Part shown: positions 13,628-32,720 of the stretch, in pieces
Layout of the letters: every line of letters begins with the position of its first letter
Position numbering within the stretch: the first letter of the stretch is position 1
From: Candidatus Omnitrophota bacterium
Lineage (GTDB): Bacteria > Omnitrophota > Gorgyraeia > 2-01-FULL-45-10
Assembly: GCA_016935115.1 (NCBI GenBank)
Contig: JAFGRN010000014.1
Span: 1-41,856 of the forward strand
Length of the DNA stretch: 41,856 bases
Direction: 5' to 3'
Program-made: the position numbers and the translations under genes
The notes under the pieces: generated by a model
What the model saw: only the letters and a program-made list of their open reading frames with translations
Told to the model about the DNA's origin: nothing
Database searches by the model: none

Positions 13628-13638
13628 CTCCTCCGCAG

Positions 13639-13763: not shown

Positions 13764-13843
13764 TGGAAGCAGCTGCCGGGGACAGGTCTGAGAAGGATTT
13801 TGAAAACGTCCCTGATTCTACAGTAGCGAGGAGAGGGAGAGTT

Positions 13844-13852
13844 TGTTATAAT
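13844..13852 (+). promoter_or_regulatory. Extended -10 promoter for the hyp operon
   Basis: TG-T-TATAAT ending 9 nt before ATG 13862. Confidence 0.55.
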
Positions 13853-13861
13853 AGAATCCCT

Positions 13862-15189: not shown

Positions 15190-15199
15190 GGGGGCAGAT

Positions 15200-17946: not shown

Positions 17947-18950
17947 AGATGGATACCATAACATTGAGCCATGGCGGCGGCGGAAGAAAGATGCACGAAC
18001 TGATCGATTCGGTCTTCAGGAAAGAATTCGCCGACACGGCTCTCGATGAAAAGAAGGATTCGGCAATAGTGAATCTGGCAGGGAGGCCCATCGCGTTTAC
18101 GACGGATTCCTATGTGGTTAATCCGATATTTTTTCCCGGCGGAGATATCGGCTCCCTCGCTATTTACGGCACCGTGAATGACCTGGCAGTGTGCGGGGCC
18201 AGGCCCCTCTATATTTCGGCGGGCGCCGTTATAGAGGAAGGTTTTCCGAAAAAGGACCTCTTGAGGATAGTCCGTTCCATGGCCAAAGCCGCCGGAAAAT
18301 CGGGTGTGCGCATAGTAACGGGAGATACGAAGGTGGTTGAGCGCGGGGCATGTGACAGGATCTTCATCAATACGAGCGGTATAGGCGAGATCTATTACAG
18401 CGGATTGTCGCAGGCGAAGATAAGGGCCGGCGATTCGTTAATATTAAGCGGCCCGGTCGGCGACCATGCCGTAAGCATTCTGTCGAAAAGGGAGGGGATA
18501 GGTTTTTCTACCGCGATAAAGAGCGATTCGGCGCCGCTAAATGCGCTTATTAGAAAAATTCTCGGGGTATCGAAAAGATTGCGTTTTATGCGCGACCCGA
18601 CCAGAGGCGGCCTTGCTACCACGCTCAATGAGATCGCGTCCGGTTCCCGTTTTTCGATCGCGGTAGACGAAGCGGCCGTTCCGGTGCGGGATGGTGTTCG
18701 CCAGGCATGCGAATTATTGGGGCTGGACCCTTTATATCTTGCCTGCGAAGGCCGTGTGGTATTGGTCGCGGCCCAGGATGACGAGCGGGGGATACTGAAA
18801 GCATTACGCTCCGATAAGTCCGGACGCATGGCTGCAAAGATCGGCAGTATCACGGGCGATTATCCCGGGAAAGTATATCTCAATACGATAGCTGGCGGCA
18901 GGAGGATCCTTGATATGCTTTCCGGGGAACAGCTGCCCAGGATCTGCTGA
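17943..18950 (+). CDS. hypE: Carbamoyl dehydratase
   Basis: HGGGG, TTDSYVV.P.FFPGGDIG, GDTKVV, RDPTRGG, C-terminal LPRIC. Confidence 0.97.
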   Translation: MKMDTITLSHGGGGRKMHELIDSVFRKEFADTALDEKKDSAIVNLAGRPIAFTTDSYVVNPIFFPGGDIGSLAIYGTVNDLAVCGARPLYISAGAVIEEGFPKKDLLRIVRSMAKAAGKSGVRIVTGDTKVVERGACDRIFINTSGIGEIYYSGLSQAKIRAGDSLILSGPVGDHAVSILSKREGIGFSTAIKSDSAPLNALIRKILGVSKRLRFMRDPTRGGLATTLNEIASGSRFSIAVDEAAVPVRDGVRQACELLGLDPLYLACEGRVVLVAAQDDERGILKALRSDKSGRMAAKIGSITGDYPGKVYLNTIAGGRRILDMLSGEQLPRIC

Positions 18951-19669
18951 TGTACAGAGAGCGCGCCTACAGGAGATGGGTTAATGCAGACGGCCTCGTC
19001 ACATTCGAGGTGATGGAGAAAGAGACGGATCTCGCCATCTCCGCCTCAAGGGACCTGGAGAGGCAGGCTCGTTCGGCACTATTGACCTACCGCAAGGAGA
19101 TTGAAGATTATATAAAACTTGACTGCGCCTTTTTAACATCTCTGGAGCCGTTAAGCGTGAGAGCCGGAGCCCCTCTTATAATAAGGTCGATGGCTGATGC
19201 GGCCGCGAAAGCCGGTGTCGGACCGATGGCGGCTGTCGCCGGTGCGGTCGCCGAATTCGTCGGCAGGGATCTCCTGCAGTTCTCCGGCGAAGTTATAGTC
19301 GAGAACGGCGGCGACATATTTTTAAGGAGCGCGAAGAAGAGAGTGATGGGTATCTATGCAGGCGAGGAGTCGCCGTTTACCGGCAAACTGGCCATAGAAA
19401 CGGGGCCCTCGGAGGACGGCATCGGCGTATGCGCTTCGAGCGGCACGGTCAGCCACTCCTTAAGCTTCGGGAAATCGGACGCTGTAGTGATCATGGCCGA
19501 TGAGGCCGCCCTGGCGGATGCAGTTGCCACGGCATCGGGTAATATGTTAAAATCTTCCATGGATATAGAGAAGGCTATCGATTTTGCCCGGTCTGTAGAA
19601 GGCGTAAACGGAGCCCTTGTCATAATAAAAGATAAGATGGGAAGCTGGGGCGGGATAAAATTAGTGTAA
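18950..19669 (+). CDS. UPF0280 / COG2122 ApbE-like protein
   Basis: YRER.YR, ETDL, VGPMAAVAGA, ENGGDI, GVCASSGTVSHSLSFG, ADAVATA. Confidence 0.85.
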   Translation: MYRERAYRRWVNADGLVTFEVMEKETDLAISASRDLERQARSALLTYRKEIEDYIKLDCAFLTSLEPLSVRAGAPLIIRSMADAAAKAGVGPMAAVAGAVAEFVGRDLLQFSGEVIVENGGDIFLRSAKKRVMGIYAGEESPFTGKLAIETGPSEDGIGVCASSGTVSHSLSFGKSDAVVIMADEAALADAVATASGNMLKSSMDIEKAIDFARSVEGVNGALVIIKDKMGSWGGIKLV

Positions 19670-19703
19670 AGAGTGAGACGGGGGACAATAAGGGGGTTTA
19701 AAG

Positions 19704-20111
19704 ATGGTATCCAAAAGAATAGTCCTGACATTTCCGCATGACATGGTGGACCAGCCTATAGTCTATAAGCTTGTCAAGGAACACAATCTTGTCTTTAATA
19801 TATTACAGGCCAAGATCACTCCGCGGGAAGAAGGGGTAATGGTGCTGGAATTGAAAGGCAAGAAAGAAGATTATGTCGCGGGCATAAAATACCTGAGGTC
19901 CATAGGCGTGAAGATCCAGCCGATAAGCCGCGATGTGACGAGGGATGAGGAGAAGTGCACCCATTGCGGCGCATGCGTAACAATATGCCCGACAGGAGCG
20001 CTCTATACGGATAAGAAGACGATGAAAGTCATGTTCGATTCCGAAAAGTGTATTGCCTGCGAACTCTGCGTAAAGGCCTGCCCGCCCCGCGCCATGATGG
20101 TGAAATTGTAA
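19704..20111 (+). CDS. NIL-domain 2x[4Fe-4S] ferredoxin
   Basis: P.VYKLVK..NL.FNILQA NIL domain; CTHCGACVTICP and CIACELCVKACP. Confidence 0.88.
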   Translation: MVSKRIVLTFPHDMVDQPIVYKLVKEHNLVFNILQAKITPREEGVMVLELKGKKEDYVAGIKYLRSIGVKIQPISRDVTRDEEKCTHCGACVTICPTGALYTDKKTMKVMFDSEKCIACELCVKACPPRAMMVKL

Positions 20112-20122
20112 CAGATTTCGCC

Positions 20123-20152
20123 TTGACGGAATGGCAATGCTTAGTTTACAAT
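20123..20152 (+). promoter_or_regulatory. Sigma70 promoter of the hydrogenase operon
   Basis: TTGACG-N18-TACAAT. Confidence 0.6.
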
Positions 20153-20188: not shown

Positions 20189-21235
20189 ATGAAGAATAAC
20201 CTGTACACCATAACCAAGAAAGACCTGTTCGACTTATTCGGGCGCCTTGCCGGAGCCAACAGGGTAGTCGTGCCTTACATTAAGGGCGAGAAGCTCTCTT
20301 TCGACGACTTTGACCCTAAAAAAGAAGATGTGATAGAGCTCGGCGGCGTTAGGCAGAGCCAGCCGGTCAAGTCATTTATAAATCCGGTAAGGGAGAAGAT
20401 AACCGGTTCAGCCCCCCGTGGCAAGCCTCTCGTATTAGCCGGCGTAAAAGCATGCGACCTGTCGAGCCTTTTTGTGCAGGATTCCGTTTTCCTGGGCGGA
20501 GATATCGAAGACCCTTTTTACGCGGAAAACAGGAAGAATACGACTATTATAGCCTCGGATTGCACATATGCCAAAGAGACCTGTTTTTGCGTAGCGATGG
20601 AAGGCGCGCCTTATCCATCCAGGTATTTTGACCTTTCCATATCGGCGATAGATAATTATTTTCTGGTGGAGGTAGGAAGCGAAAAAGGGCAGAAGCTGAT
20701 CGACGGGTATAAGACTTTCTTCAAGTCTCCCTCAGTTCATGCCGAGGACCTGCGCCGCGCCGCCCGCGAAAGGGTTACAGGGCAGGTCCGCGATTTCATA
20801 GCAGGAAGAGGCACACCCGATACCGCCCGGATCAAGGGCATGGTGAGAAAGAACTATGATCTGACGGACTTCTGGAAGGAGATGGCGTCGACCTGTGTGG
20901 AGTGCGGAGCCTGTAATTTGGCCTGTCCCACGTGTCATTGTTTTCTCCTCTTCGACGAGAAAGACCAGGCTGGAGCGAAACGCTTCAGGGTTTGGGACGC
21001 CTGCCTTTACAGCACATTCGCGAAGGTCGCCGGAAATCATAATCCCAGGAAGCATCTGTACGAACGCCTGCGCAACAGGTTCGACAAAAAATTCGATTTC
21101 TTTCCGGAAACGCTCGGCTGTTTCGCTTGCACGGGATGCGGCCGCTGTATAGAGGCGTGCCCCGGGAGCATAGACATAAGAGAAGTATTGAAAGGCCTGG
21201 TATCAGGCAAATGGAAGACACCTCCCCATGAGTGA
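20189..21235 (+). CDS. AsrA / sulfhydrogenase beta (HydB)-like Fe-S protein
   Basis: GVKACD, D..Y, CFC, CVECGACNLACPTCHC, WDAC, CTGCGRCIEACP. Confidence 0.85.
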   Translation: MKNNLYTITKKDLFDLFGRLAGANRVVVPYIKGEKLSFDDFDPKKEDVIELGGVRQSQPVKSFINPVREKITGSAPRGKPLVLAGVKACDLSSLFVQDSVFLGGDIEDPFYAENRKNTTIIASDCTYAKETCFCVAMEGAPYPSRYFDLSISAIDNYFLVEVGSEKGQKLIDGYKTFFKSPSVHAEDLRRAARERVTGQVRDFIAGRGTPDTARIKGMVRKNYDLTDFWKEMASTCVECGACNLACPTCHCFLLFDEKDQAGAKRFRVWDACLYSTFAKVAGNHNPRKHLYERLRNRFDKKFDFFPETLGCFACTGCGRCIEACPGSIDIREVLKGLVSGKWKTPPHE

Positions 21236-22058
21236 TTGTAAAAAGAACCCCTACGCTTTCATAGAAGCCGAAGTGATAAAGGTTACCGATGAGACATCCA
21301 ATATAAAGACGTTGACCTTGAAGCCGCGCGGTGATATTGCCTTCAGGGCGGGCCAGTTCATGGAGGTAACGCTTCCGGGAATAGGCGAAGCGCCGTTCAC
21401 GCCTTCATCAAACCACAACAGCAAAGAAACCCTGGATTTTACCATAATGAGCGCCGGGCGAGTCACGAAGCTTATCCACCAGGCTAAGGCTGGGGATGTG
21501 GTGGGCCTGCGCGGGCCGTACGGCACGCGGTATCCGCTGGAGCAGTTCAAGGGCAGGGAAGTATTCATCGTAGGCGGCGGTGTCGGGCTGGCGCCGCTCA
21601 GGGCGCTTCTTTACGCTCTCTTCAATGACATCGGGGATTATAAGAAGATAATACTGCGTTACGGCGCGAGGTCCCCGGGCGACATTGTCTATAAGAGCGA
21701 GATAGATTCATGGCGCCGCAAGGCCGGCAATGTGGATGTAGGGATAACGTGCGATGTCGGAGATCCGTCATGGAGCGGCCATGTCGGGCTTGTTACCACG
21801 ATCCTCAGTAATGACGGCCTCGATATCGGAAATGCGGTTGCCATAGTCTGCGGGCCCCCGATAATGATGAAATTCGCCACATTCAAGCTGTTGGACCTGG
21901 GCTTCAAGGACAGCCAGATACACCTTTCCATGGAGAAGAACATGTCCTGCGGCATAGGCAAATGCGGCCATTGCAGGATAGGGCCATATTACGCGTGCAA
22001 AGACGGGCCGGTCTTTACTTACGATAAGATAAAGAGCCTGCCGAATATCTGGGATTAG
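21228..22058 (+). CDS. AsrB / sulfhydrogenase gamma (HydG)-like FAD/NAD(P)-binding [2Fe-2S] protein
   Basis: GQF, RGPYG, GGGVGLAP, CGPPIMM, MSCGIGKCGHC...CKDGPVF. Confidence 0.9.
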   Translation: MSDCKKNPYAFIEAEVIKVTDETSNIKTLTLKPRGDIAFRAGQFMEVTLPGIGEAPFTPSSNHNSKETLDFTIMSAGRVTKLIHQAKAGDVVGLRGPYGTRYPLEQFKGREVFIVGGGVGLAPLRALLYALFNDIGDYKKIILRYGARSPGDIVYKSEIDSWRRKAGNVDVGITCDVGDPSWSGHVGLVTTILSNDGLDIGNAVAIVCGPPIMMKFATFKLLDLGFKDSQIHLSMEKNMSCGIGKCGHCRIGPYYACKDGPVFTYDKIKSLPNIWD

Positions 22059-22062
22059 GATC

Positions 22063-22566
22063 ATGAAACGGTTGTTGATAGATCTGGATATATGTTCAAA
22101 GTGCGATGAGTGCGGGATGCTCTGCAGTTATATCCGGCACCCCTCGAATAACGGCATAACATCCCTGCGGGAATTCGGGCATTTCGCCGTAGTCTGCCGC
22201 CGCTGTGACGACGCGCCGTGTGTGGCATCGTGCCCGTGGGAGGCGCTTGAATTGCAGAAAGATACGAACATGCTGAAGAGATACATGATGCGCTGCACAT
22301 CATGCAAATCATGTTCGAGGGCCTGTCCGTTCGGAGTAATATATCCTGAGACTATACCGTTTGTTATAGCGAGATGCGATCACTGCCTTGGCAGGCTTAA
22401 GGGCGACGAGAAGCCAGTCTGCCTGGAATCGTGCGGCCATGGAGGCATAAAGTACGGCGAGTTTTCGGAAAATAAAGAAGAGGGGATATTCGCCGCTTCC
22501 GAAAATCTCCTCGTGAAGACGTCTTACAAGTGGGAGAGGGTGCTCGAGGCTCCAAAGAAAAAGTAA
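22063..22566 (+). CDS. HycB/DmsB-like multi-[4Fe-4S] electron transfer subunit
   Basis: CSKCDEC, CRRCDDAPCVASCP, CTSCKSCSRACP, CDHC...VCLESC. Confidence 0.85.
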   Translation: MKRLLIDLDICSKCDECGMLCSYIRHPSNNGITSLREFGHFAVVCRRCDDAPCVASCPWEALELQKDTNMLKRYMMRCTSCKSCSRACPFGVIYPETIPFVIARCDHCLGRLKGDEKPVCLESCGHGGIKYGEFSENKEEGIFAASENLLVKTSYKWERVLEAPKKK

Positions 22567-22576
22567 AAGGAATACG

Positions 22577-23515
22577 ATGAAGTTTCCGGCATATATGTTC
22601 GCGTTTCTGGTCTTCCCCGGGTTTGTCTTCTCGGCTGTAGCGGGACTCATGGCAGGGTGGGTGGACAGGAAGGTCACAGCCCGCCTTCAATGGAGGGTAG
22701 GGCCGCCATGGTACCAGAACTTCTTTGATATATTAAAGCTCTTGCTGTATAAGGAGACCCTTATACCGAGGGGTGTGCCCAAAGCTGTCTTTCTTGGAAT
22801 GCCAGCGCTGGGCCTGGCCGCCGCTACTCTCGTTTCGACGATAGTGCTCATTACGAGCGGCATGCCCAAGATCGGATTTATCGGTGATGTAATAGTAGTG
22901 GTCTACCTGATGCTGATACCGCCGATTACGCTCATGCTCGGCGGTTTTGCCTCCGCGAATTCGCTCGCTTCCCTGGGCGCTTCCCGCGAAATGAAGCTGA
23001 TGCTATCGTACGAACTGCCTTTTATACTGGCGCTGGCCGTGCCTATAATGAAATGCGGTTATGTCATACGGCTGGGTGATATCATCGCCTACCAGCGCCT
23101 TCACGGAGATATTTTCGCGAGCCTGTCCGGAGGGATCTCTTTCTTTGTCATGCTTCTCTGCATACAGGCAAAACTCGGGTTTGTCCCTTTTGATATGCCC
23201 GAAGCCGAGACGGAACTGATGGGCGGGCCCTACATAGAGTATTCCGGCAAAGCCCTCGCGATATTCAAATTGACAAAAGCGGTCATGACAGTCGCGATAC
23301 CGGCATTCATGATAGCGCTCTACCTGGGTGGGATTAAATTAACGCTTGATGGCATCGTGAAAGCCGTGATAAAGTACATTCTTATACTTACGGCGATGAT
23401 AATCATAAAGAATACCAATCCCAGGGTAAGAATAGACCAGGCGGTGAAGTTTTTCTGGGGCATTGTAATGGTTCTGGCGGCAGTATCGCTGGTACTGGCA
23501 TTCATGGGAAGGTAA
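22577..23515 (+). CDS. Hydrogenase membrane anchor, NuoH/HycD/MbhM-like
   Basis: DRKVTARLQWRVGPP, GASRE, PFDMPEAETEL..G..EYSG, PRVRIDQ. Confidence 0.92.
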   Translation: MKFPAYMFAFLVFPGFVFSAVAGLMAGWVDRKVTARLQWRVGPPWYQNFFDILKLLLYKETLIPRGVPKAVFLGMPALGLAAATLVSTIVLITSGMPKIGFIGDVIVVVYLMLIPPITLMLGGFASANSLASLGASREMKLMLSYELPFILALAVPIMKCGYVIRLGDIIAYQRLHGDIFASLSGGISFFVMLLCIQAKLGFVPFDMPEAETELMGGPYIEYSGKALAIFKLTKAVMTVAIPAFMIALYLGGIKLTLDGIVKAVIKYILILTAMIIIKNTNPRVRIDQAVKFFWGIVMVLAAVSLVLAFMGR

Positions 23516-23516
23516 G

Positions 23517-23951
23517 ATGGGACTAAAAGAGATTGTACTGACGAAGTCGATATACGTATTCCACGTCTCGAGCGGAAGCTGTAATAACTGTGATATAGAG
23601 ATAATAGCCGCGCTTACGCCGAGGTTCGACCTCGAGCGTTTCGGGGTGGTCCTGGTCGGCAGTATCAAACACGCGGATGCCATGCTCTGCACCGGCTCAT
23701 CGAACCGCCTGGCGATACCGAGGGTAAAGGCCCTGTATGAACAGATGCCGAAACCCGGCTTTGTCATCGCATACGGCTCATGCGGTGCTTCGAGAGGTTT
23801 ATTCAAGGATAGCTACAATACCTGTGCGCCTCTCGATGAGATAATACCTGTCGATGCCTATATACCGGGATGCCCTCCGAAGCCGGAAGCCACTATAGCA
23901 GCGCTCGCAAAACTTATAGCCAGGGTCAGGGCAAAGAAGGCGGTTAAATGA
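23517..23951 (+). CDS. Group 4 [NiFe]-hydrogenase small subunit (NuoB/MbhJ-like)
   Basis: GSCNNCDIE, FDLERFG, GSC, PGCPPKPE. Confidence 0.93.
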   Translation: MGLKEIVLTKSIYVFHVSSGSCNNCDIEIIAALTPRFDLERFGVVLVGSIKHADAMLCTGSSNRLAIPRVKALYEQMPKPGFVIAYGSCGASRGLFKDSYNTCAPLDEIIPVDAYIPGCPPKPEATIAALAKLIARVRAKKAVK

Positions 23952-24415
23952 AGATAGATGATATATTGAAGAGATTGACCGATCGTTACGGCGACCGCCT
24001 GCTTAAGGTCGAGAGGAAGTCGCATAAGCGGGCGTACATAGACATATATCCGAAGGAAATAGTCGATGTGGCTGGATATATCTTCAGGGAACTTGGCATG
24101 CGTTTCAATATAGCTAGCGCGGTGGACGAACTTGAGCGGCTGGAGATATTGTACCATTTTTCATACGATCCCTCGGGCATTATCATATCCGTAAGGACGC
24201 TCTTGAATGACAAGGATAATCCGCGCATCGATACGATTACCGGAGTGACGCCCGCGGCATGGTGGATAGAGAGGGAGATACATGAGCTTTTCGGGATACA
24301 CTTTGACGGCAATGAGGACCTGCGGCAGCTCCTTCTGCCGGATGATTGGCCGAAAGGCGTCTATCCGTTGAGAAAGAGTTTTGTGGTGCCGAAGAGAGAT
24401 TCGAGGAAGTCATGA
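23948..24415 (+). CDS. NuoC/MbhK-like subunit
   Basis: EILYHF, WIEREIHELFGIHF.G, LLLPDDWP..YPLRK. Confidence 0.9.
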   Translation: MKIDDILKRLTDRYGDRLLKVERKSHKRAYIDIYPKEIVDVAGYIFRELGMRFNIASAVDELERLEILYHFSYDPSGIIISVRTLLNDKDNPRIDTITGVTPAAWWIEREIHELFGIHFDGNEDLRQLLLPDDWPKGVYPLRKSFVVPKRDSRKS

Positions 24416-25602
24416 GTTCCAACAGATCGACCATACCCATAGGGCCTTACCATCCGCTGCAGGAAGAGCCGGAGTTCTGGAAGCTGATAGTCGAGGGCGA
24501 GAAGGTCGTTGACGTGGACGTAAGGATAGGCTACAACCACCGTGGCATTGAGAAGCTTTCGGAAGCGAAGAGCTTCGACCAGTCGATATTTATCGTCGAG
24601 CGGATATGCGGCATATGTTCATCGAGCCATCCCATAGCCTGCGTTCAGGCCGTCGAGGATATCTGCAATATAGAAGTCCCGGAGAGGGCCCTGTATATCC
24701 GGACTATAACTCAGGAGCTCGAGAGAATACACTCGCACATGTTATGGCTCGGCCTGGCAGGGCACTTTATCGGTTATAATACAGTATTCATGTGGAGCTG
24801 GAAATACCGCGAGCCCATATGCGAGATCATGGAGACAGTAACTGGGAACCGCCAGAACTACGCTATGCATAAGGTGGGCGGAGTAAGGCGCGATATCGAG
24901 AAAGAGCACATACCTTATATATTGACGAAGCTCGACGAATTCTTAAAACAGCTCGATATGCTTAAAGGAGCGGTACTCGACGACCCTGTTATACACGCCC
25001 GCCTTAAGGGAGTGGGCGTGCTTTCCAGGGAAGCTGCGATAAATTACTCGGCAGTCGGGCCGGTCGCCAGGGCTTCAGATTTCGACATAGACGTAAGGCG
25101 CGACCATCCTTACGGCGTATACAGCAGGCTTAAGTGGAACGTGATCACGCAGAAAGAAGGGGACGTATTCGCGAAGGCGGTTGTGAGGATACTCGAGATG
25201 TTTGAATCCGCCAGTATTATAAGGCAGTGTCTTGATAAGATGCCAGATGGGCCTATAGATTCCAGGCCGAAAGATATTGAGCCGGGCGAAGGTATAGGGG
25301 TCATCGAGGCCCCAAGGGGGGAGTGCTTCCACTATATAAAGTGCGACGGCACAAATTCACCCGTCCGCCACAAGGTCAGGGCGCCTACTTATATGAACTT
25401 TCCGACATTCAGGGAGACTGTGATAGGCGGGAGTGTATCGGATGCCACTATAATAATGGCCGCGATAGACCCCTGTTACTGCTGTACGGAAAGAATGATG
25501 ATAGTGGATGGCGATAATAAAGAACTGCTTAAAGCCGGAGACCTCATAAGGCTTTCACAGGAAAAGACACGCAGGATAAAAGAGAGATTCGGGGTAATAT
25601 AA
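24412..25602 (+). CDS. Group 4 [NiFe]-hydrogenase large subunit
   Basis: IGPYHP..EP, HRGIEK, L1 ERICGIC, EAPRGE, L2 DPCYCCTER plus C-terminal extension; ATG 24412 overlaps the upstream stop. Confidence 0.94.
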   Translation: MSSNRSTIPIGPYHPLQEEPEFWKLIVEGEKVVDVDVRIGYNHRGIEKLSEAKSFDQSIFIVERICGICSSSHPIACVQAVEDICNIEVPERALYIRTITQELERIHSHMLWLGLAGHFIGYNTVFMWSWKYREPICEIMETVTGNRQNYAMHKVGGVRRDIEKEHIPYILTKLDEFLKQLDMLKGAVLDDPVIHARLKGVGVLSREAAINYSAVGPVARASDFDIDVRRDHPYGVYSRLKWNVITQKEGDVFAKAVVRILEMFESASIIRQCLDKMPDGPIDSRPKDIEPGEGIGVIEAPRGECFHYIKCDGTNSPVRHKVRAPTYMNFPTFRETVIGGSVSDATIIMAAIDPCYCCTERMMIVDGDNKELLKAGDLIRLSQEKTRRIKERFGVI

Positions 25603-25605
25603 AAG

Positions 25606-27408
25606 ATGTTCTCAGATCCGCTTCCGATACTGGTCATGGCGCCTATTGCGGCGGGATTTGCCTGCATAGCCGTGCCAGACGGCATGAAAGGTCTTATTAA
25701 ACTGTTTACGGGTATCGTGACTGCCGCATGCCTTGCCGGGAGCATCTTTGTATTCAGGGAAAAACCTGCCTTCTGGTTCTATGGAGATACGGCGGTCCTG
25801 CTGGCTGACAACCTGTCGGGTTTTATTGCAATAGCTGTTTCGGCATTCGCGTTTCTCATAACGATATATTCCTTCGGTTCCGTAGAGAGGTCATTTGGCA
25901 GGTACTTCGGGTATGTGCTGATGACTCTGGGTGCTTCCATGGGGGTCATATTTGCCAATAATCTCCTGGTCATGCTGGTATTCTGGGGATTCCTGGCGGC
26001 GATGCTCTACCTGCTGGTTAATCTGGAAAATACCAAAGAAGCGGCGCTTGCCGGCCGTAAAGCGCTCATAATAATAGGCGGCACTGATGCTGTGATGATA
26101 TTCGGAATAGGGCTCATATGGATCATGACGGATACTTTTTCCATGGATATGATACGGTTGCCTCTCGACAGCATATTAACTTACACCGCTTACTTTTGCA
26201 TAGTCATAGCGAGCTTCGCGAAAGCGGGGGCGATGCCTTTCCATTCATGGCTTCCGGATGTGGCAGAGAGCGCTTCCGGATCTGTGGCGGCATACCTGCC
26301 GGCCTCGCTCGATAAACTTCTCGGGATATACCTGCTTGCCAGGGTTTCATTCGACCTCTTTATAACGACAGCGGCGTCCAACCTTGTGTTATTGGCCGTG
26401 GGCGCTATTACTATAGTGTTGGCGGTTATGATGGCTCTCGTTCAGCATAATTACAGAAAACTTCTTGGGTATCATGCTGTTTCTCAGGTGGGTTACATGA
26501 TACTGGGTATAGGCAGCGGAACTGTGATAGGTATCGCCGGCGGGCTCTTCCACATGCTCAATAATGCAATATATAAATCATGCCTCTTTCTGACGAGCGG
26601 CGCGGTGGAGAAAAAGGCCGGTACAATGGATCTTGATAAGCTGGGCGGTCTGGCGAAGTTCATGCCGTTTACTTTTCTGGCCTGTGTCATAGCATCATTG
26701 GCCATATCCGGAATACCGCCTTTCAATGGTTTTGTATCAAAATGGATGATATACCAGGGCATAATAGAATCGGCCTCTTCATCAAGGTTGTGGGTGGTAT
26801 GGTTATGCGCGGCTATGTTCGGAAGCGCGCTTACCATAGCGAGTTTTATGAAACTGCTGCATGCCGCGTTCATGGGGAGAAAGTCGGATAATATAAAAGA
26901 GATCCGCGAAGTGGGCCCATCCATGTATATCCCGATGCTTACACTGGCCTTAATATGTATCATTTTCGGCATATTTGCTTTTAGCATACCGCTTCCGCTT
27001 TTTATATTGCCGGCCGTAAGCGGCGTTCCGGCTTTTATAGGGACGTGGGGCGCTGTTCTTGCTACGATACTTATCCTTGTGGGGGCGGCAGCGGGTTTTA
27101 TATTATACAGGTTCTTCGGCAGAAGCGGGTTACGCATTGTAGATAATTTCGTCGGCGGAGAAGCGCCGGAGAAATTATCGCGCGTATCGGGCACCGAATT
27201 CTATGATACTATAAATGATATAAGCCTGATCGGCAGGATCAACAGGGCCGAGTCGGCGGGGAATTTCGACCTTTATAACATAGGAATGAAGGCAGTTAAT
27301 TTTTTTACCATACCCCTGCAGCGCCTGCATAACGGCGTACTGCCTACATACCTTATATGGTGTTTTCTGGGAATGGTGGGAATGTTCCTCTTTTTATTTT
27401 TCAGGTGA
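25606..27408 (+). CDS. Antiporter-like membrane subunit (MrpA/NuoL/HyfB family)
   Basis: Many TM helices; KAGAMPFHSWLPD, LLGYHAVSQVGY, GIPPFNGFVSKW. Confidence 0.9.
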   Translation: MFSDPLPILVMAPIAAGFACIAVPDGMKGLIKLFTGIVTAACLAGSIFVFREKPAFWFYGDTAVLLADNLSGFIAIAVSAFAFLITIYSFGSVERSFGRYFGYVLMTLGASMGVIFANNLLVMLVFWGFLAAMLYLLVNLENTKEAALAGRKALIIIGGTDAVMIFGIGLIWIMTDTFSMDMIRLPLDSILTYTAYFCIVIASFAKAGAMPFHSWLPDVAESASGSVAAYLPASLDKLLGIYLLARVSFDLFITTAASNLVLLAVGAITIVLAVMMALVQHNYRKLLGYHAVSQVGYMILGIGSGTVIGIAGGLFHMLNNAIYKSCLFLTSGAVEKKAGTMDLDKLGGLAKFMPFTFLACVIASLAISGIPPFNGFVSKWMIYQGIIESASSSRLWVVWLCAAMFGSALTIASFMKLLHAAFMGRKSDNIKEIREVGPSMYIPMLTLALICIIFGIFAFSIPLPLFILPAVSGVPAFIGTWGAVLATILILVGAAAGFILYRFFGRSGLRIVDNFVGGEAPEKLSRVSGTEFYDTINDISLIGRINRAESAGNFDLYNIGMKAVNFFTIPLQRLHNGVLPTYLIWCFLGMVGMFLFLFFR

Positions 27409-27414
27409 AGATAT

Positions 27415-27945
27415 ATGCTTGAGATAGACCTTTTACTGTTATTTATGATAGCTTCCGCCATTATCGCGGTGCAGGTCAAGGACCTGCTTTCAAGCGTGAT
27501 AGCGGTAGGCGCCGTGGGCATAGGATTATCCATGTCATTCCTTATCATGAAAGCGCCCGACCTGGCCATAATGCAGCTGGTAGTTGAGGTCCTGAGCCTT
27601 ATAATACTTATCCGCGCTACGATAAGGAAAGACCTGCCTTTCAGCGCTTCCGGCAGATGGGCCTTCAATACGTTTTCCATGATACTCTTTCTGGCCGTAT
27701 TCCTCGTATTTGCGTATTTTTCTTTCAGCGATATGCACAGGTTCGGCGCCCCGCTCATGAAAGTATCGCAGGAATATCTGGGAGAGGCCATGGCGAAGAC
27801 AGGGGCACATAATGTCATCGCGGCGATAACGCTTAAATATCGTTCCATCGATACGCTGGGGGAAGTGGCGGCGTTATTTGCCGCTGTTGTAGGGGTACTA
27901 GCTATCGCGCGTAAAGTATCGCGTCCGGGAGGGATCAGGAAATGA
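27415..27945 (+). CDS. Mrp/Mbh subunit (DUF4040 + MbhE-like, corresponds to MrpA C-terminus)
   Basis: APDLAIMQLVVE; NVIAAI...YRSIDTLGE. Confidence 0.85.
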   Translation: MLEIDLLLLFMIASAIIAVQVKDLLSSVIAVGAVGIGLSMSFLIMKAPDLAIMQLVVEVLSLIILIRATIRKDLPFSASGRWAFNTFSMILFLAVFLVFAYFSFSDMHRFGAPLMKVSQEYLGEAMAKTGAHNVIAAITLKYRSIDTLGEVAALFAAVVGVLAIARKVSRPGGIRK

Positions 27946-28346
27946 GCCGCGCCGGGAACAAAGGCATGACTTTGATAGTCAAGACCGTGACCAGGATCAC
28001 CCTCGGTTTTATACTCCTCTACGGTATTTATATAGCCCTTAACGGTGAGACCGCCCCTGGCGGGGGGTTTGCCGGAGGCGTGATAGTAGCGCTTGCCCTT
28101 GTCCATGTCATGCTGGCTTTCGGCAGGGACGTATCGCTGAAATGGCTGCATGTTGGCGGCCTGCGCGCGGCGGTATCTATAGCGGCCTTGATATTTTTAT
28201 TAGCCGCCTGGCCAAGAGGCCAGAGGATCATATTTGGCAATGATATTATATTGCCGGTCTGCGAGATGGTCATAGTAGGCGCCGGCCTATTCGCGATATT
28301 CGTGGCGCTTGTCCTGGTATCGAAAGCGGATAAGGAAGCGGAATAA
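27942..28346 (+). CDS. MnhB/MrpB (MbhF)-like subunit
   Basis: G..APGGGFAGG motif, TM helices. Confidence 0.85.
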   Translation: MSRAGNKGMTLIVKTVTRITLGFILLYGIYIALNGETAPGGGFAGGVIVALALVHVMLAFGRDVSLKWLHVGGLRAAVSIAALIFLLAAWPRGQRIIFGNDIILPVCEMVIVGAGLFAIFVALVLVSKADKEAE

Positions 28347-28357
28347 AGGATTAGAAT

Positions 28358-28696
28358 ATGGTGACTTATTTATTGTGCCTGGTGTTATTCTCCGTCGGAC
28401 TGTATTGTGTTGTAAGGAAGAGGAATATTATAAAGATAATAATAGGCATAGGCATAATGGAGTATGCCATCAACCTTTTCTTTATTCTGATAGGCTACCG
28501 CTCCAATGGCCGCGCTCCGATATTCGCCGATGACCAGGCAGTCGTGAACATGGTCGATCCGCTGCCGCAGGCCATGGCGCTTACCGCGATAGTGATAAGC
28601 CTCGCCGTGACCATGATGCTTGTGGCCCTTGCTATCAGGATTTACGAGAAGTACGGCACATTCGATATAACGAAGATAAACAGGCTGAAGGGGTAG
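28358..28696 (+). CDS. MnhC/MrpC (MbhG)-like subunit
   Basis: NIIKIIIG, DPLPQAMALTAIVI. Confidence 0.92.
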   Translation: MVTYLLCLVLFSVGLYCVVRKRNIIKIIIGIGIMEYAINLFFILIGYRSNGRAPIFADDQAVVNMVDPLPQAMALTAIVISLAVTMMLVALAIRIYEKYGTFDITKINRLKG

Positions 28697-28701
28697 GGTT
28701 G

Positions 28702-30192
28702 ATGCATCTTTTTCTTATAATACCGCTTGCCGCCGCTTTCATGATGGCGATTTTAGCCAGAACCGGCGACTGTGTCCGGGACATTATTTCCGGACTTGCG
28801 GCGATATCGCTTGCCGTTTTTTCGGTATTAACACTGATGGCGGCTAATTTCTTTCACAGCGCCGTGATCGTCAAGTCTTTTGCGGGTTTTATGCCGCCGG
28901 CAGGGACGGCATTCGTGGTGGACGGCCTTTCAGCCTTCATGCTGGTGACCGTGAATACAGTCGCGTTATTTGTCGTATTATATTCCGCCGGCTACATGAA
29001 TAAATATACGGATAAGTGGAAGTTCCAGTCATTATTCTTCCTGATGATCTCCGGCATAAACGGTGTCCTGGTAGCTTCGGACATGTTCAATCTGTATGTT
29101 TTCCTGGAGATCGCGGCTATATCGGCGTACTTTCTCGTCGCGTTCGGTACGGAGGCCGAGGAACTCGAAGCGTCGTTCAAATACGCTGTCATGGGCACGG
29201 TTGCGTCAGCTTTTATACTGCTCGGCATAGCGTTTTTGTACAGCCACACGTCTACTCTCAGCCTTGCAGGCATCGCGCAGGCAATTGCCGCCGCGCCTTC
29301 AGCGCGTATTGTGCAGTTTGTCAGCGTGCTTTTCCTTATGGGATTCGCGCTCAAGGCGGCGCTGGTGCCATTCCACGCGTGGCTGGCATATGCGCATTCA
29401 TCCGCTCCCGCGCCTATATCGGCGATGCTCTCAGGGGTACTCATAAAAGTGCTCGGCATATACGCAATAGCCAGAATATTTTTCAGTGTTTTCGGGGCAA
29501 GCGCCGGCATATGCCAGATACTTATAGCTCTGGGCGTCCTGTCCATGATAGCCGGTGGCGTCCTGGCTTTCGGCCAATCTGACATAAAGAGGCTTTTTGC
29601 TTATTCGACCGTGAGCCAGATAGGATACGTGGCCCTGGCGCTCGGAGTGGCTACGCCGCTGGCTTTTTTCGGGGCGGTATTCCACCTCTTCAATCATAGC
29701 ATAGTAAAGTCGCTGCTCTTCCTTAATTCCGGGTCGATAGAACAGATGTTTCGCACAAGAGACCTTAGCAAGATTTCCGGTGTGGTGGCGGGCGCTCCCG
29801 TTACAGGTTATACGAGTATCATGGGGGCCATGTCTATAAGCGGCGTTCCGCCGTTCGGAGGATTCTGGTCGAAACTGATAATCATCTTTGCCTGCTTACA
29901 GGCTGGCCATCCGGTACTCGCGGCGATCGCCGTATTGGTAAGCGTAATGACCATGGCGTATTACTTTGCCGCAATGACTCCGGCGCTGTTCGGCGCAGGG
30001 ATAAACAGTTTTAATGCCGTGAAGAAGGTGCATGGCATCATGAATGTGTCTGTAATGGCGCTAGCGGTTTTAGCTCTGGCTGCGCCGCTGGCGCTTCTGC
30101 CGGAAATGAGGCAGAGGCTGATCGATGGCGCTGTCCAGGCGCTGGTGAACGGCAGTGCCTATGCAGCCACGGTTTTGGGGGCGATCAAATGA
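28702..30192 (+). CDS. MnhD/MrpD (MbhH)-like antiporter subunit
   Basis: DMFNLYVFLEI, EASFKY, KAALVPFHAWL, AYSTVSQIGY, PPFGGFWSK; alternative TTG start at 28699. Confidence 0.92.
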   Translation: MHLFLIIPLAAAFMMAILARTGDCVRDIISGLAAISLAVFSVLTLMAANFFHSAVIVKSFAGFMPPAGTAFVVDGLSAFMLVTVNTVALFVVLYSAGYMNKYTDKWKFQSLFFLMISGINGVLVASDMFNLYVFLEIAAISAYFLVAFGTEAEELEASFKYAVMGTVASAFILLGIAFLYSHTSTLSLAGIAQAIAAAPSARIVQFVSVLFLMGFALKAALVPFHAWLAYAHSSAPAPISAMLSGVLIKVLGIYAIARIFFSVFGASAGICQILIALGVLSMIAGGVLAFGQSDIKRLFAYSTVSQIGYVALALGVATPLAFFGAVFHLFNHSIVKSLLFLNSGSIEQMFRTRDLSKISGVVAGAPVTGYTSIMGAMSISGVPPFGGFWSKLIIIFACLQAGHPVLAAIAVLVSVMTMAYYFAAMTPALFGAGINSFNAVKKVHGIMNVSVMALAVLALAAPLALLPEMRQRLIDGAVQALVNGSAYAATVLGAIK

Positions 30193-30683
30193 TAAAGAAT
30201 GTTATCATGTTCATGATATGGTACATGGTCTGGATATTCCTGTCATGGCCGCCCGAACCAAAAGATATTATTGTGGGAGCGGTTGTTTCGTTGTTTGTGA
30301 TTCTTATGACGGCAGACATGATGGATCGCTGCGACTCGAAAGCGGATATCATCCGGTTGCCTGTGCGTCTCGCATGGTTCGCATGTTACGCGCTTGTCTT
30401 CATATGGGAATGTTTGAAAGCAAATGTCGATGTAGCTTACAGGGTCATACGTCCGGACCTTCCCATAAGGCCGGGCACCATAAAGGTGAAGGTTGATCTG
30501 AAGTCCGACGCGGGCCTGACATTCCTGGCAAATTCCGTTACGCTTACGCCCGGCACTACGACCGTTGACCTGGATGCCGGAAAGGGCTTTCTTTATGTGC
30601 ACATGCTGGTATTGAAGCGGGATGGGCGCTCGATCAAAGCCATAGGCAGATTCCAGAAAATATTAAAGAGGATATTCGAATAA
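30189..30683 (+). CDS. MnhE/MrpE (MbhA)-like subunit
   Basis: ANVDVA, IRPG, LANSVTLTPGT, LYVH. Confidence 0.92.
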   Translation: MIKNVIMFMIWYMVWIFLSWPPEPKDIIVGAVVSLFVILMTADMMDRCDSKADIIRLPVRLAWFACYALVFIWECLKANVDVAYRVIRPDLPIRPGTIKVKVDLKSDAGLTFLANSVTLTPGTTTVDLDAGKGFLYVHMLVLKRDGRSIKAIGRFQKILKRIFE

Positions 30684-30687
30684 TACC

Positions 30688-31047
30688 ATGAAGAGGATGC
30701 GTTATTTCACAGGCTTGGCCGTAATAATAATAATAGCGGCAGTAATTCTTTATTGCCCGGCCAGATCGATCATAAGATGGCAGTCCGAATTCCTGGGGCG
30801 GGCGTTCCTCTTCCTGCTCCTGTCCGCGTCAATGTGCCTGTACAGGGTGCTGCGCGGCCCGACAGCCCCAGACAGGGCGGTTGCCATAGATATGCTGGGG
30901 ATTCTCATAGTGGGATTCTGCGCCATTCTTTGTATTCCGACGGGAAGGGACTGGTATATTGATATAGGCATAGCCTGGGCGCTGCAGAGTTTTATAGGCA
31001 TAATGGCGCTGGCCAAGTACCTGGAAGGGAAGGATTTTGATGAATGA
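30688..31047 (+). CDS. MnhF/MrpF (MbhB)-like subunit
   Basis: RVLRGPTAPDRAVAID, FIG..ALAKYL. Confidence 0.9.
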   Translation: MKRMRYFTGLAVIIIIAAVILYCPARSIIRWQSEFLGRAFLFLLLSASMCLYRVLRGPTAPDRAVAIDMLGILIVGFCAILCIPTGRDWYIDIGIAWALQSFIGIMALAKYLEGKDFDE

Positions 31048-31375
31048 GACCATAGGAATGGTGCTGGTTGTGACAGGGCTGGTGTTTGATTTTTTCGGAT
31101 GCCTGGGGCTTGTGCGGTTTCCCGATGTGTATAACCGCCTGCAGGCATCGGCTAAATGTATTACGCTCGGCACCTGCGGCATACTCCTGGGGCTTATCTG
31201 TTTTAAGGGGTTCGGCGCCACAAGTGTAAAAGCGTTCCTATGCCTGGTTTTTATAATATTGACCGCTCCCGTATCTGCGCACGCGCTTGCGCGGGCCGCC
31301 TACCGTTCAGGTGTCAAGCCCTGGTCCGGAACAGTCGAGGATGAATATAGTAAAGATATGGATGGCATAAAATGA
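31040..31375 (+). CDS. MnhG/MrpG (MbhC)-like subunit
   Basis: GLVRFPDVYNRLQA..K..TLG, TAPVSAHALARA. Confidence 0.92.
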   Translation: MNETIGMVLVVTGLVFDFFGCLGLVRFPDVYNRLQASAKCITLGTCGILLGLICFKGFGATSVKAFLCLVFIILTAPVSAHALARAAYRSGVKPWSGTVEDEYSKDMDGIK

Positions 31376-31989
31376 GATATCCTAAGCTGAGAGAACTTAA
31401 GGAAGCGGTGATTGCCCTTATAAAGGGGCCGTATACCGAAGCTTATCCGCGTAAGCCGATCCAGAGCCCCAAGAGGTTCCGCGGCAAACCGGAATATTCC
31501 GATGAGGGCTGTATAGGCTGTACCGCCTGCGCCCTGGTATGCCCGGCCAGGGCCATAGAATTCCGCGATACAGTCGAGAACGGTAAAGCGACGAGGAAGA
31601 TGATATTGCATCTGGATGAATGCCATTACTGCGGGCAGTGCAGCGCTCTCTGCACCACGCGCGAAGATACTCCGCCCGGGATCAGGCATACGGCGGAATT
31701 TGATCTTGCGGGCTTCGACCGCGCCTCGATGGTGTCGGCTACGGAGGAGAAAGAGCTCGTGCTTTGCGAGATATGCGGAGATATTATCACCACGAAGGCG
31801 CATCTTGCGTGGATCGCGAAGAAACTCGGGTCGCTGGCATTCTCGAATCCCACGCTCTTCATGTCGAGCCTTAAGGGGATGGGATTTGCCGAAAACGTCC
31901 TCCAGGCAGCCAAAGATTATGTCTTAAGGCCTGACAGGATAAAGATACTCTGCTCCAAATGCAGAAGAAAAGCGACCATTGAGCGATAA
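31372..31989 (+). CDS. NuoI/HycF/MbhN-like [4Fe-4S] subunit with extra C-terminal Cys pairs
   Basis: PYT..YP, RFRGKP, CIGCTACALVCP, CHYCGQCSALC, CEICG...CSKC. Confidence 0.88.
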   Translation: MRYPKLRELKEAVIALIKGPYTEAYPRKPIQSPKRFRGKPEYSDEGCIGCTACALVCPARAIEFRDTVENGKATRKMILHLDECHYCGQCSALCTTREDTPPGIRHTAEFDLAGFDRASMVSATEEKELVLCEICGDIITTKAHLAWIAKKLGSLAFSNPTLFMSSLKGMGFAENVLQAAKDYVLRPDRIKILCSKCRRKATIER

Positions 31990-32473
31990 TAGCGTCAGAT
32001 CGGGCGATCTAGCCGCGGAGATAAAGAAGAGGGTAAGGGGCAAGGTCACGATATCCGCCATCGGCAACATAATGAGGGGCGATGACGGCCTCGGCCCGAA
32101 ACTGATAGAGATGCTGAAGGCCCGCAATGTGAAGGCGGGCCTTTTTGATTGCGGAACGGCCCCGGAGAATTATATCTTTCCAATGCTCACGACGCTGTGC
32201 GATACTCTCATCCTCGTGGACGCGGCGGACATGGCCATAGAGCCGGGGCTCGCCAGGGTGCTTAATGTCGATGATATAGCGAATGTCAGCTTCTCCACGC
32301 ACTGCCCGTCGCCGCGGCTCTTCATAGACCTGCTGAAGACTGGAAACGAAAACCTCAATGTCTTCGTCATATCCGTACAACCCAAAGATACCTCTCTCGG
32401 GATCCCATTGAGCGCGGAGGTCCTCAAAGGGCTCGAAACCCTCGCGGACGCGCTCACAGAAGCGCTTGCCTGA
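31979..32473 (+). CDS. hycI: Hydrogenase maturation endopeptidase
   Basis: IGNIMRGDDGLGP, GTAPEN, LVDAAD, STH. Confidence 0.88.
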   Translation: MSDNSVRSGDLAAEIKKRVRGKVTISAIGNIMRGDDGLGPKLIEMLKARNVKAGLFDCGTAPENYIFPMLTTLCDTLILVDAADMAIEPGLARVLNVDDIANVSFSTHCPSPRLFIDLLKTGNENLNVFVISVQPKDTSLGIPLSAEVLKGLETLADALTEALA

Positions 32474-32475: not shown

Positions 32476-32720
32476 GGGATTTTTCAGCTATCAGCTTCAG
32501 GTGGAAGTGACCAAAGCGATCCACCTGGAGCGACTGTCGTAAAAATGCGATACCTATAGGCGATATACCGGGACAAGGAAACTGCTCCATGGCTTATGTG
32601 TATGCAGGTTCATTGGCCATCGCATTTTTACCACAGCGAATTTACATGCCTAATGTAAATTCGCGGCAAGCGAAAGGTGGTCGCTTGGTCACATCTGTAG
32701 GGATGGGACCGAAAAATCCC
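32476..32720. repeat. Structured palindromic intergenic element, copy C
   Basis: GGGATTTTTC/GAAAAATCCC ends; stems 32539-32551/32619-32631 and 32636-32647/32653-32664; motifs shared with 35495-35605. Confidence 0.8.

Follow-up and report, generated by a model that had tools for sequence, protein, structure and literature searches.

The window analysed here, a stretch of 41,856 nt, is contig C34 of a metagenome-assembled genome (MAG) of Candidatus Omnitrophota, an assembly of 1.40 Mb in 79 contigs that is 82% complete; whatever is reported below as not found in the source genome was not found within an assembly of that completeness. Seventeen open reading frames (ORFs), g01 to g17, all on the forward strand, fill positions 20189-32473 of the window. 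They encode a putative group 4 [NiFe] hydrogenase with an Mrp-type membrane arm, headed by three genes for redox proteins, and the operon is discussed here as a candidate for an ion-coupled NAD(P)H:H+ oxidoreductase. Its intergenic gaps range from -11 to +11 nt, with overlaps of 4 to 11 nt at 6 of the 16 junctions. This close packing argues for one transcription unit, rather than for separate transcription of the asrA- and asrB-like genes at its head, and bears out the 17 tightly coupled genes of an original prediction made from the DNA letters. The gene identities given there hold as well, since Pfam assigns one expected family to each gene.

A sigma-70-like promoter candidate, TTGACG-18-TACAAT (20123-20152, forward strand), lies in the 77-nt gap before g01 and agrees with the consensus at 10 of 12 positions. 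It is a consensus match only, and the scan that found it gave many further matches inside genes. The one promoter of the original prediction thus has a fitting candidate in the right gap, while its singleness is suggested by gene spacing and not by the scan. Among sequencing runs, no RNA run is listed with the locus, and the single run that is listed is a DNA run, perhaps the source of the window. Two metatranscriptome contig sets, both from the same study, yielded three pieces of 33-44 nt with 90-95% likeness, none of which comes from this organism.

Hydrogenase core, membrane arm and presumed input module

The core of the enzyme is encoded by g04 to g07. The product of g04 (22577-23515) is a 312-aa membrane anchor like NuoH, MbhM and HycD (Pfam NADHdh, E 1.9e-62), that of g05 (23517-23951) a 144-aa NuoB-like hydrogenase small subunit (Oxidored_q6) whose four proximal-cluster cysteines are conserved in 77 sequences, and that of g06 (23948-24415) a 155-aa NuoC-like subunit (Complex1_30kDa). 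The [NiFe] large subunit g07 (24412-25602; Complex1_49kDa and NiFeSe_Hases) is a 396-long protein when read from ATG 24412. This codon is most likely the start because it overlaps the g06 stop by 4 nt and orthologues align from there; the start TTG 24346 was set aside, the alignment of the orthologues beginning at the ATG. Gene 07 codes for both Ni-binding CxxC motifs read in the original prediction, RICGICSSSH near the N-terminus and DPCYCCTER near the C-terminus, which are invariant in 8 orthologues. A 32-residue tail follows, the usual substrate for a HycI-type protease, and such a maturation endopeptidase of 164 aa is encoded by the last gene, g17 (31979-32473; Pfam HycI; NCBIfam hydrog_prot, 95.7 bits, above cut-off). 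The NuoD-like Ni-Fe ligands, the NuoB-, NuoH-, NuoC- and NuoI-like subunits, and the tail together with the endopeptidase and hyp genes are those of a group 4 [NiFe] hydrogenase. Among solved chains g07 matches best MbhL of the Pyrococcus furiosus membrane-bound hydrogenase (MBH; 6cfw_L, 303 bits), then HycE of the Escherichia coli formate hydrogenlyase (FHL) FHL-1 (7z0s_E, 281 bits), and MbsL of the MBS complex with 163 bits.

The membrane arm comprises homologues of Mrp A to G, encoded by g08 to g15, as in Mrp-linked enzymes of the MBH type. Gene 08 (25606-27408) codes for a large antiporter-like subunit of 600 aa that resembles the N-terminal part of MrpA, MbhH and Nqo12 (Proton_antipo_M; PDB matches 6cfw_H, 7qru_A, 4he8_L and 6u8y_X), and g09 (27415-27945) for a 176-aa small membrane subunit of MbhD plus MbhE type that corresponds to the C-terminal part of MrpA (MbhD, MbhE). 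Next come MrpB/MnhB-like g10 (27942-28346, 134 aa; MnhB) and MrpC/NuoK-like g11 (28358-28696, 112 aa; Oxidored_q2). The second large antiporter subunit, MrpD-like g12 (28699-30192, 497 aa; Proton_antipo_M and Proton_antipo_N), has antiporter subunit D models as its best NCBIfam matches; the two large antiporter subunits announced by the original prediction are both there, each with a Proton_antipo_M domain. The set is completed by MrpE (g13, 30189-30683, 164 aa; MNHE, E 7.8e-40), MrpF (g14, 30688-31047, 119 aa; MrpF_PhaF) and MrpG (g15, 31037-31375, 112 aa; PhaG_MnhG_YufB). Gene 16 (31372-31989) codes for a 205-aa HycF/NuoI-like protein with two predicted [4Fe-4S] clusters (Fer4) and a C-terminal Cys4 extension, whose residues C132, C135, C193 and C196 are conserved in 51 sequences. 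Its best PDB match is HycF of FHL (7z0s_F, E 1.2e-15), ahead of MbhN of MBH.

The three genes at the head of the operon form the presumed input module. Gene 01 (20189-21235) encodes a 348-aa Fe-S protein (Fer4_22) of the SHI-beta/HydB/AsrA kind, SHI being the soluble hydrogenase I, or sulfhydrogenase 1, of P. furiosus. It matches the beta subunit of that enzyme (PDB 9nez_B) with E 2.4e-31, and 15 of its cysteines are invariant in 28 orthologues. The product of g02 (21228-22058), 276 aa long, matches the gamma subunit (9nez_C) from end to end with E 1e-51, and combines FAD_binding_6, NAD_binding_1 and DHODB_Fe-S_bind domains, as expected of an SHI-gamma/HydG/AsrB-like protein that holds FAD, NAD(P) and a [2Fe-2S] cluster. 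Its GGGxGxAP and CGPP motifs (NAD-binding), its FAD-site motif and its CGIGKCGHC..C motif ([2Fe-2S]) are at least 95% conserved in 66 sequences; the arginine aligned with the 'TAR' stretch of SHI-gamma is conserved at less than 80%. Gene 03 (22063-22566) encodes a HycB/CooF-like ferredoxin of 167 aa (Fer4_11) with 16 cysteines in four groups of CxxCxxCxxxC type, invariant or at least 90% conserved in 28 orthologues, and thus presumably with four [4Fe-4S] clusters; its PDB matches include HycB of FHL (7z0s_B) and HycB3/HycB4 of the hydrogen-dependent CO2 reductase HDCR. The operon hence has both the HycB-like and the HycF-like Fe-S subunit of FHL, in g03 and g16. Judged from homology, the peripheral arm is FHL-like (HycF plus HycB), and the membrane arm has the full Mrp set with two large antiporter-like subunits, like Mrp itself and the MBS complex and in contrast to MBH.

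The NCBIfam equivalog models place g01 and g02 near known families, under the cut-off of each. ShyB/HydB gives 149 against a cut-off of 690 with the beta homologue and ShyC/HydG 193 against 600 with the gamma homologue, while AsrA gives 122.5 against 323 and AsrB 214.3 against 288.6. With all scores far under the cut-offs, g01 and g02, though clear homologues of SHI-beta and SHI-gamma, are probably relatives of the ShyB/HydB/AsrA and ShyC/HydG/AsrB families rather than members. In the protein collection, every named relative of g01 is a MAG protein of 'Candidatus Omnitrophota/Omnitrophica'. A quick tree of gamma subunits puts 84 operon-linked sequences on one side of a branch, with a support of only 77, and three sequences linked to group 3b hydrogenases, the whole 3b sample, on the other; PyrK and NfnA-like sequences fall outside. 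A complex prediction of g01 with g03, from an alignment of 28 rows each, gave a score of 0.00 and weighs neither way. Selenocysteine in relatives of g01 was considered and rejected, the in-frame stops of the tblastn matches being natural stop codons read through by the aligner.

The same genes might be read as those of a sulfur-linked enzyme, in which the SHI-beta-like subunit would be an output site where electrons from H2 or ferredoxin pass to S0, polysulfide or another acceptor, much as in sulfhydrogenase or MBS. Papers are cited here and below for passages of their text. SHI was first described as a sulfhydrogenase, according to entries in the reference lists of PMC8542988 and PMC2678158, and the two-antiporter membrane arm resembles that of MBS (6u8y), which likewise joins two large antiporter-like subunits to a Na+ module (PMC8165549). 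However, g07 keeps its four Ni-binding cysteines and is closer to MbhL than to MbsL by the bit scores given above, HycI and the hyp genes are present, and the conserved NAD(P)-binding motifs of g02 would be left without a role. We hold this reading to be very unlikely; the retained Ni-Fe cysteine ligands point to protons, and not to quinone or polysulfide, as the acceptor.

Conservation of the gene order

Forty relatives, from genus to class level, were searched for g01, a strong match being one with E at or below 1e-74. Strong matches are found in 26, weak matches to paralogues in 6, and none in 8. Twenty stretches were fetched from these relatives, 18 with a strong match and two with a paralogue. 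All 17 genes occur in the order of the window in 17 of the 18 strong-match loci, and the remaining one, L037, is cut by its contig end after hycB, so the order is intact in 17 of 17 informative loci. A supposed relative without asrA, G019, which is one of the 8, was rejected as such: the operon is present and the contig ends 126 nt after asrB. Four relatives (G005, G015, G038 and G040) have an asrA paralogue besides the operon copy. The one paralogue locus with enough sequence, L039 from G032, shows the asrA paralogue next to a group-3-like large subunit and a protease; since the paralogue sits with such a subunit of its own, the operon copy of asrA is probably not shared.

The gene order was followed further with a scan for the large subunit, made on one genome per species with the two motifs of g07 and therefore blind to g01-g03. 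At least 577 stretches matched; a relative is encoded in 568 of them, and the analysis continued with the best 80 loci. Their phylum labels, which are those of the depositors' record titles and are unverified, read Omnitrophota in 39 loci, Planctomycetota-type in 14, other phyla in 22 and just 'bacterium' in 5. The 22 include Elusimicrobiota, Clostridia, Acidobacteriota, Fermentibacteria/Aegiribacteria, Hydrogenedentes, Nitrospirota, Nitrospinaceae, Patescibacteria group, Atribacterota, Actinomycetes, Spirochaetota and Caldisericota labels. The series asrA-asrB-hycB-nuoH-nuoB-nuoC-nuoD is contiguous in 66 of the best 80 loci, L108 has it in the same order in frameshifted pieces, and 13 loci are cut by contig ends. 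The order from asrA to nuoD is thereby intact in 67 of 67 informative loci of the best 80, under more than 10 phylum labels, and none of these 67 is without the asrA-asrB-hycB module. The conserved gene order that the original prediction had named as its check is thus observed at both scales, and loci with asrAB-like genes out of synteny, which it had set as a ground for dropping the idea, are not among the informative ones.

Downstream of the large subunit, the g08-g16 set is whole in 51 of the 80 loci, 28 have too little sequence and one (L120) does not have it, which gives 51 of 52 loci with enough downstream sequence. A hycI gene follows on the same strand in 30 of these 51. The record of L120, titled as a chromosome and labelled Omnitrophota, runs from asrA to the large subunit and then through 10 kb of unrelated genes. 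In two loci with Spirochaetota labels that count among the 28, L097 and L121, the large subunit gene is followed at once by hycF-hycI, and L121 has its Mrp genes upstream in divergent orientation. A gene of about 200 aa with a PhoU domain lies inside the operon in 32 of 100 related loci (e.g. L023:13728-14375 and L053:11175-11792), where it separates either mrpG from the hycF-like gene or the large subunit from the first antiporter gene, in relatives of the same genus too. In the window mrpG overlaps the hycF-like gene (31375/31372), and a homologue of the PhoU-domain gene was not found anywhere in the source genome. Within the phylum, an evenly drawn sample of 400 other Omnitrophota genomes has an orthologue of g01 (E at or below 1e-60) in 102.

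This conservation bears on a second alternative, a ferredoxin-coupled enzyme of the Mbh kind beside which g01-g03 would form a co-transcribed but separate soluble NAD(P)H:acceptor oxidoreductase, or aids in assembly or regulation. The literature leans that way. Williams et al. 2021 (PMC8542988) describe in Omnitrophota a 'group 4g', Mrp-linked membrane-bound hydrogenase for which a ferredoxin-driven, Mbh-like function is assumed. The same label and the same ferredoxin assumption are met for Auribacterota (PMC9324843) and Nitrospinota (PMC10839748), and Cloacimonadota are among the phyla so treated in this set of papers; for Omnitrophota, 'group 4g' membrane-bound hydrogenases are described by Seymour et al. 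2023 (PMC10066038) as well, in passages where neither a donor nor Mrp is named. The Mrp-linked membrane hydrogenase of the Omnitrophota literature is probably the enzyme described here, and the genes of the other label-giving papers may be those of this operon. Against the alternative, g01-g03 precede nuoH in every informative locus of the large-subunit scan, which is hard to understand without a physical partnership, and g01 and g02 have no catalytic subunit of their own, none being found elsewhere in the genome. The passages of the label-giving papers moreover leave genes of the g01-g03 type undiscussed: asrA- and asrB-like genes are unmentioned in those of PMC8542988 and PMC10066038, and the terms NADPH and HydB are absent from PMC8542988. 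A ferredoxin-only enzyme with unconnected neighbours seems to us improbable, if somewhat less so than a sulfur-linked one.

Proposed redox partner and mechanism

Comparison with known systems shows where the operon departs from each. MBH (6cfw), filed in HydDB as 'Mrp-linked, ferredoxin-coupled', shares with it the NuoB-, NuoC-, NuoH- and NuoI-like subunits, the Mrp-type small subunits (MbhD/E, MnhB, C, E, F, G) and HycI-type maturation. MBH, however, takes its electrons from ferredoxin without extra input proteins and has one large antiporter-like subunit, whereas the operon has two and puts three redox genes first, and its g16 is closer to HycF than to MbhN. The Mrp-linked MBH type has ferredoxin as its donor and no dedicated input dehydrogenase; here three syntenic redox genes head the operon. 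FHL (7z0s) has in common with the operon the HycF/HycB-like wire to an external dehydrogenase, HycF and HycB being the pair that links FdhF to the hydrogenase in that complex. It uses the molybdopterin subunit FdhF, in whose place the operon has homologues of SHI-beta and SHI-gamma. An Mrp module is found too in the Thermococcus FHL of Fdh-Mrp-Mbh composition (PMC13040438). SHI itself (group 3b, 9nez) uses its beta and gamma subunits, homologous to g01 and g02, as NADPH/FAD/Fe-S input, but it has group 3 alpha and delta subunits and the operon has neither. The anaerobic sulfite reductase AsrABC differs by its sirohaem subunit AsrC, which is not found here, and its AsrA and AsrB models score under their equivalog cut-offs. 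Complex I (4hea) works on the same principle, with a distal module that oxidises NAD(P)H, a chain of Fe-S clusters, a NuoB/D/H junction and pumps of the antiporter-like kind. Its input is NuoEFG and its site binds quinone, while the operon has another input module and keeps the Ni-Fe cysteine ligands.

We give somewhat better than an even chance to the hypothesis that the operon encodes an FHL-like, Mrp-coupled [NiFe] hydrogenase with an NAD(P)H:Fe-S module in the position of FdhF, the whole acting as a reversible, ion-coupled NAD(P)H:H+ oxidoreductase. Four observations speak for it: the nucleotide and flavin motifs of g02 are conserved, g01-g03 stand invariably ahead of nuoH, no other catalytic partner was found in the genome, and a second hydrogenase without an input module can serve ferredoxin. 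The products of g01-g17 would assemble into one membrane complex, in which a group 4 [NiFe] hydrogenase with its Mrp-type arm would carry an FHL-like peripheral arm of HycF and HycB, the position of FdhF being taken by a beta/gamma pair of the soluble, NADPH-linked sulfhydrogenase type. With a pyridine nucleotide as redox partner, electrons would pass from NAD(P)H to the FAD and [2Fe-2S] cluster of g02, through the [4Fe-4S] clusters of g01 and the four clusters of g03, and onward by the two clusters of g16 and the proximal cluster of g05 until they reach the Ni-Fe site of g07. The reduction of protons or the oxidation of H2 at the NuoD/NuoB/NuoH junction would be tied to movement of H+ or Na+ through the Mrp arm. 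The original prediction of an ion-translocating NAD(P)H:H+ oxidoreductase thus stands in its gene-level premises, while docking, redox partner, ion movement and direction are what we infer from them.

The NAD(P)H/NAD(P)+ couple lies at -320 mV and the H+/H2 couple at -414 mV under 1 bar H2 and about -300 mV at 10 Pa H2, a distance of about 94 mV at 1 bar that all but vanishes at about 10 Pa. Since the couples are this close together, the enzyme should run either way. At high H2 the ion-motive force could push NAD(P)H-driven H2 release, and ions could be pumped during the reduction of NAD(P)+ by H2 or, at trace H2, during that of protons by NADPH. Which way the enzyme runs would depend on the pressure of H2, on the ratio of NAD(P)H to NAD(P)+ and on the ion gradient.

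The other redox enzymes of the source genome yielded no alternative partner. NIR_SIR (AsrC), CCG and FlpD (Hdr/Mvh), molybdopterin enzymes (PF00384, sought in the operon as well) and [FeFe] hydrogenase were not found in it. Nor were group 3 alpha or delta subunits, the genome giving two PF00374 matches, both to NuoD-like group 4 proteins at model positions 1-69, nor the NuoEFG module of complex I, the single Complex1_51K match being RnfC on contig C26. The original prediction had noted that AsrC and a group 3b large subunit are lacking, and had named a partnership of the asrAB-like genes with AsrC, Hdr or a group 3b hydrogenase encoded elsewhere as what would speak against it; the genome search agrees with the former and gives no candidate for the latter. 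Two further AsrB-like matches belong to PyrK/PyrD and to a Nfn/Sud-like pair. RnfC and RnfD are present, together with two 2-oxoacid:ferredoxin oxidoreductase alpha subunits (POR_N) and an acetyl-CoA synthase (CdhC/AcsB, 223 bits; contig C73:2522-2986). AcsB with no formate dehydrogenase found matches the partial Wood-Ljungdahl pathway of some Omnitrophota (PMC10066038).

A second group 4 [NiFe] hydrogenase is encoded on contig C78 (about 7489-16915) with a set like that of complex I: three antiporter-like subunits, NuoJ/K-like small subunits and NuoB/C/D/H/I-like subunits. Its Ni-binding motifs are intact, it has no AsrA-, AsrB- or HycB-like and no MrpE, F or G genes, and 16 of the 40 relatives have an orthologue of its large subunit (67-82% identity). 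As this hydrogenase does without an input module, the extra module of the operon plausibly marks a different redox partner. Among the sampled Omnitrophota, [FeFe] hydrogenase was found in 7 of the 102 genomes with a g01 orthologue against 148 of the 298 without one, in a by-eye comparison of lists that ignores kinship; among the 40 relatives it occurs in 6, one of which has the operon. That the two so rarely co-occur is a weak hint in favour of the NAD(P)H:H+ oxidoreductase and fits a shared role as the H2 valve of the cell.

A three-way branched complex that uses both ferredoxin and NAD(P)H, with g01-g03 as a second branch that balances the pools, has to be weighed here. It could work by confurcation or bifurcation, or as a side path from ferredoxin to NAD(P)+ next to a hydrogenase that ferredoxin drives. 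Bifurcation or confurcation has been proposed for group 4b clusters with SHI-beta/gamma homologues (PMC13582414), the four-cluster g03 and g16 could provide an MBH-like site for ferredoxin, and the genome both makes reduced ferredoxin, through its two POR_N enzymes, and has Rnf and the Nfn-like pair. On the other side, the published third arm, a Fdh-like protein, is not in the operon and was not found in the genome, and the C78 hydrogenase is already there for ferredoxin. The FAD of proteins of the SHI-gamma/PyrK type is, besides, not a known bifurcating flavin. We consider such a complex a doubtful but serious possibility.

Several points also weigh against an NAD(P)H:H+ oxidoreductase as such. 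The link of g01-g03 to the hydrogenase is presumed from the genes, and in a genome that is 82% complete the absences are not proven. Ferredoxin could dock on g03 or g16 as in MBH, so that NAD(P)H would perhaps not be the only or the main partner, and g01-g03 may serve a third substrate that is not visible here. The complementary distribution of [FeFe] hydrogenase would fit a ferredoxin-only H2 valve equally well. Related clusters in print carry a molybdopterin protein and have been read as bifurcating (PMC13582414) or as having an unknown donor (PMC6349859). The sequence of g02, finally, favours neither NAD nor NADP as its nucleotide.

Taking the NAD(P)H:H+ oxidoreductase hypothesis one step further, the two group 4 hydrogenases might together be a chemiosmotic stand-in for a bifurcating hydrogenase, the operon connecting NAD(P)H with H2 and the C78 enzyme ferredoxin with H2 across one shared ion gradient. 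During fermentation, H2 release from NAD(P)H would be paid for by the ions that ferredoxin-driven H2 release pumps; during growth on H2 by the partial Wood-Ljungdahl pathway, the ions from the reaction of H2 with NAD(P)+ would cover the transfer from H2 to ferredoxin. On this view the operon would be a functional counterpart of complex I that reduces protons and has an input module other than NuoEFG. It would be widespread, with about one in four of the sampled Omnitrophota genomes and more than 10 phylum labels, and would up to now have gone under a ferredoxin-coupled annotation. We advance this pairing as a tentative idea that is more probably wrong than right.

The general idea is already in print as genomic speculation, and is less new than the original prediction supposed. 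Matheus Carnevali et al. 2019 (PMC6349859) described an 'enigmatic' group 4 hydrogenase of Saganbacteria (RX5A) whose large subunit has its closest relatives in Zixibacteria and Omnitrophica. Encoded in the same region are Mrp-like subunits, an unclassifiable molybdopterin oxidoreductase, cooF, asrA and asrB, which were suggested to make up an oxidoreductase module. A paper of 2026 (PMC13582414) reports proteins homologous to SHI-gamma and to SHI-beta in group 4b clusters with a Fdh that is missing the catalytic residue, and suggests bifurcation. Both are the same kind of hybrid of asrA/asrB, cooF and an Mrp-type group 4 hydrogenase, but they have a molybdopterin or Fdh-like subunit that is in neither the operon nor the 67 informative related loci. 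An NADPH dehydrogenase on a complex of the MBH/MBX type was proposed from a genome earlier still, by Spring et al. 2010 (PMC3035292) for the MBX-type complex of Thermosphaera aggregans; that module is SudA/GltD-like, and the archaeal operon is without antiporter genes. Passages on Mrp or NADPH in the literature on Pelobacter carbinolicus, Staphylothermus marinus and Moorella thermoacetica hold nothing on this architecture. The Fdh-less 17-gene form was not found in full-text searches of the literature, although supplementary maps of PMC6349859, PMC13582414 and PMC10066038 may show it, and the same searches gave no account of its strict conservation, no doubt about the 'group 4g, ferredoxin-coupled' label and no experimental test. 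Judged by its genes, the operon would best be filed among the Mrp-linked group 4 hydrogenases, as an enzyme that would work like FHL with an NAD(P)H input of the sulfhydrogenase type and, in principle, like a complex I that reduces protons.

To our knowledge all characterised group 4 hydrogenases receive their electrons from ferredoxin, formate or CO. If the NAD(P)H:H+ oxidoreductase hypothesis is true, the enzyme would be the first ion-coupled one of its kind. It could explain how fermenters without [FeFe] bifurcating hydrogenases dispose of NAD(P)H as H2, and how H2 users without them form NAD(P)H with energy conservation. It would also be a living analogue of the step from hydrogenase to complex I, with a different pyridine-nucleotide module on the NuoB/D/H core. 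Metabolic reconstructions of Omnitrophota, and probably of other phyla, that carry the 'group 4g, ferredoxin-coupled' label would need to be revisited, the signature to look for being asrA-asrB-hycB directly before nuoH, as in every informative locus examined.

Genes flanking the operon

Some 300 nt after hycI, the next gene downstream codes for a chorismate-binding protein like anthranilate synthase component I. The gap between them contains a perfect 12-bp inverted repeat with a 5-nt loop (32636-32664) that is not followed by a T-run on the forward strand. The terminator scan was at chance level, with 12 found against 12.6 expected.

Upstream, on the same strand, maturation genes assigned by Pfam and NCBIfam (13763-18950) are associated with the operon and lie outside it: the C-terminal half of hypF, a 575-aa ORF, hypD and hypE. 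The hypF gene (13763-14992) covers only the Kae1-like half, which spans model positions 380-740 of 741; instead of the part with acylphosphatase, zinc-finger and YrdC domains, the sequence upstream encodes lpxI. The 575-aa ORF (15140-16867), between hypF and hypD, falls into no family of Pfam or NCBIfam, gave no tblastn match in 100 related loci or the rest of the genome, and may be a lineage-specific insertion in the hyp cluster. Two further genes (18950-20111) close the hyp operon directly before the promoter-like site. The first codes for a 239-aa 'hypothetical protein' of the PRK04334 family, with homologues in 14 of the 100 related loci. The other encodes a 135-aa NIL-domain ferredoxin with two predicted [4Fe-4S] clusters, which has homologues in 19 of the 100 and might act as a dedicated redox partner or as a factor in maturation.

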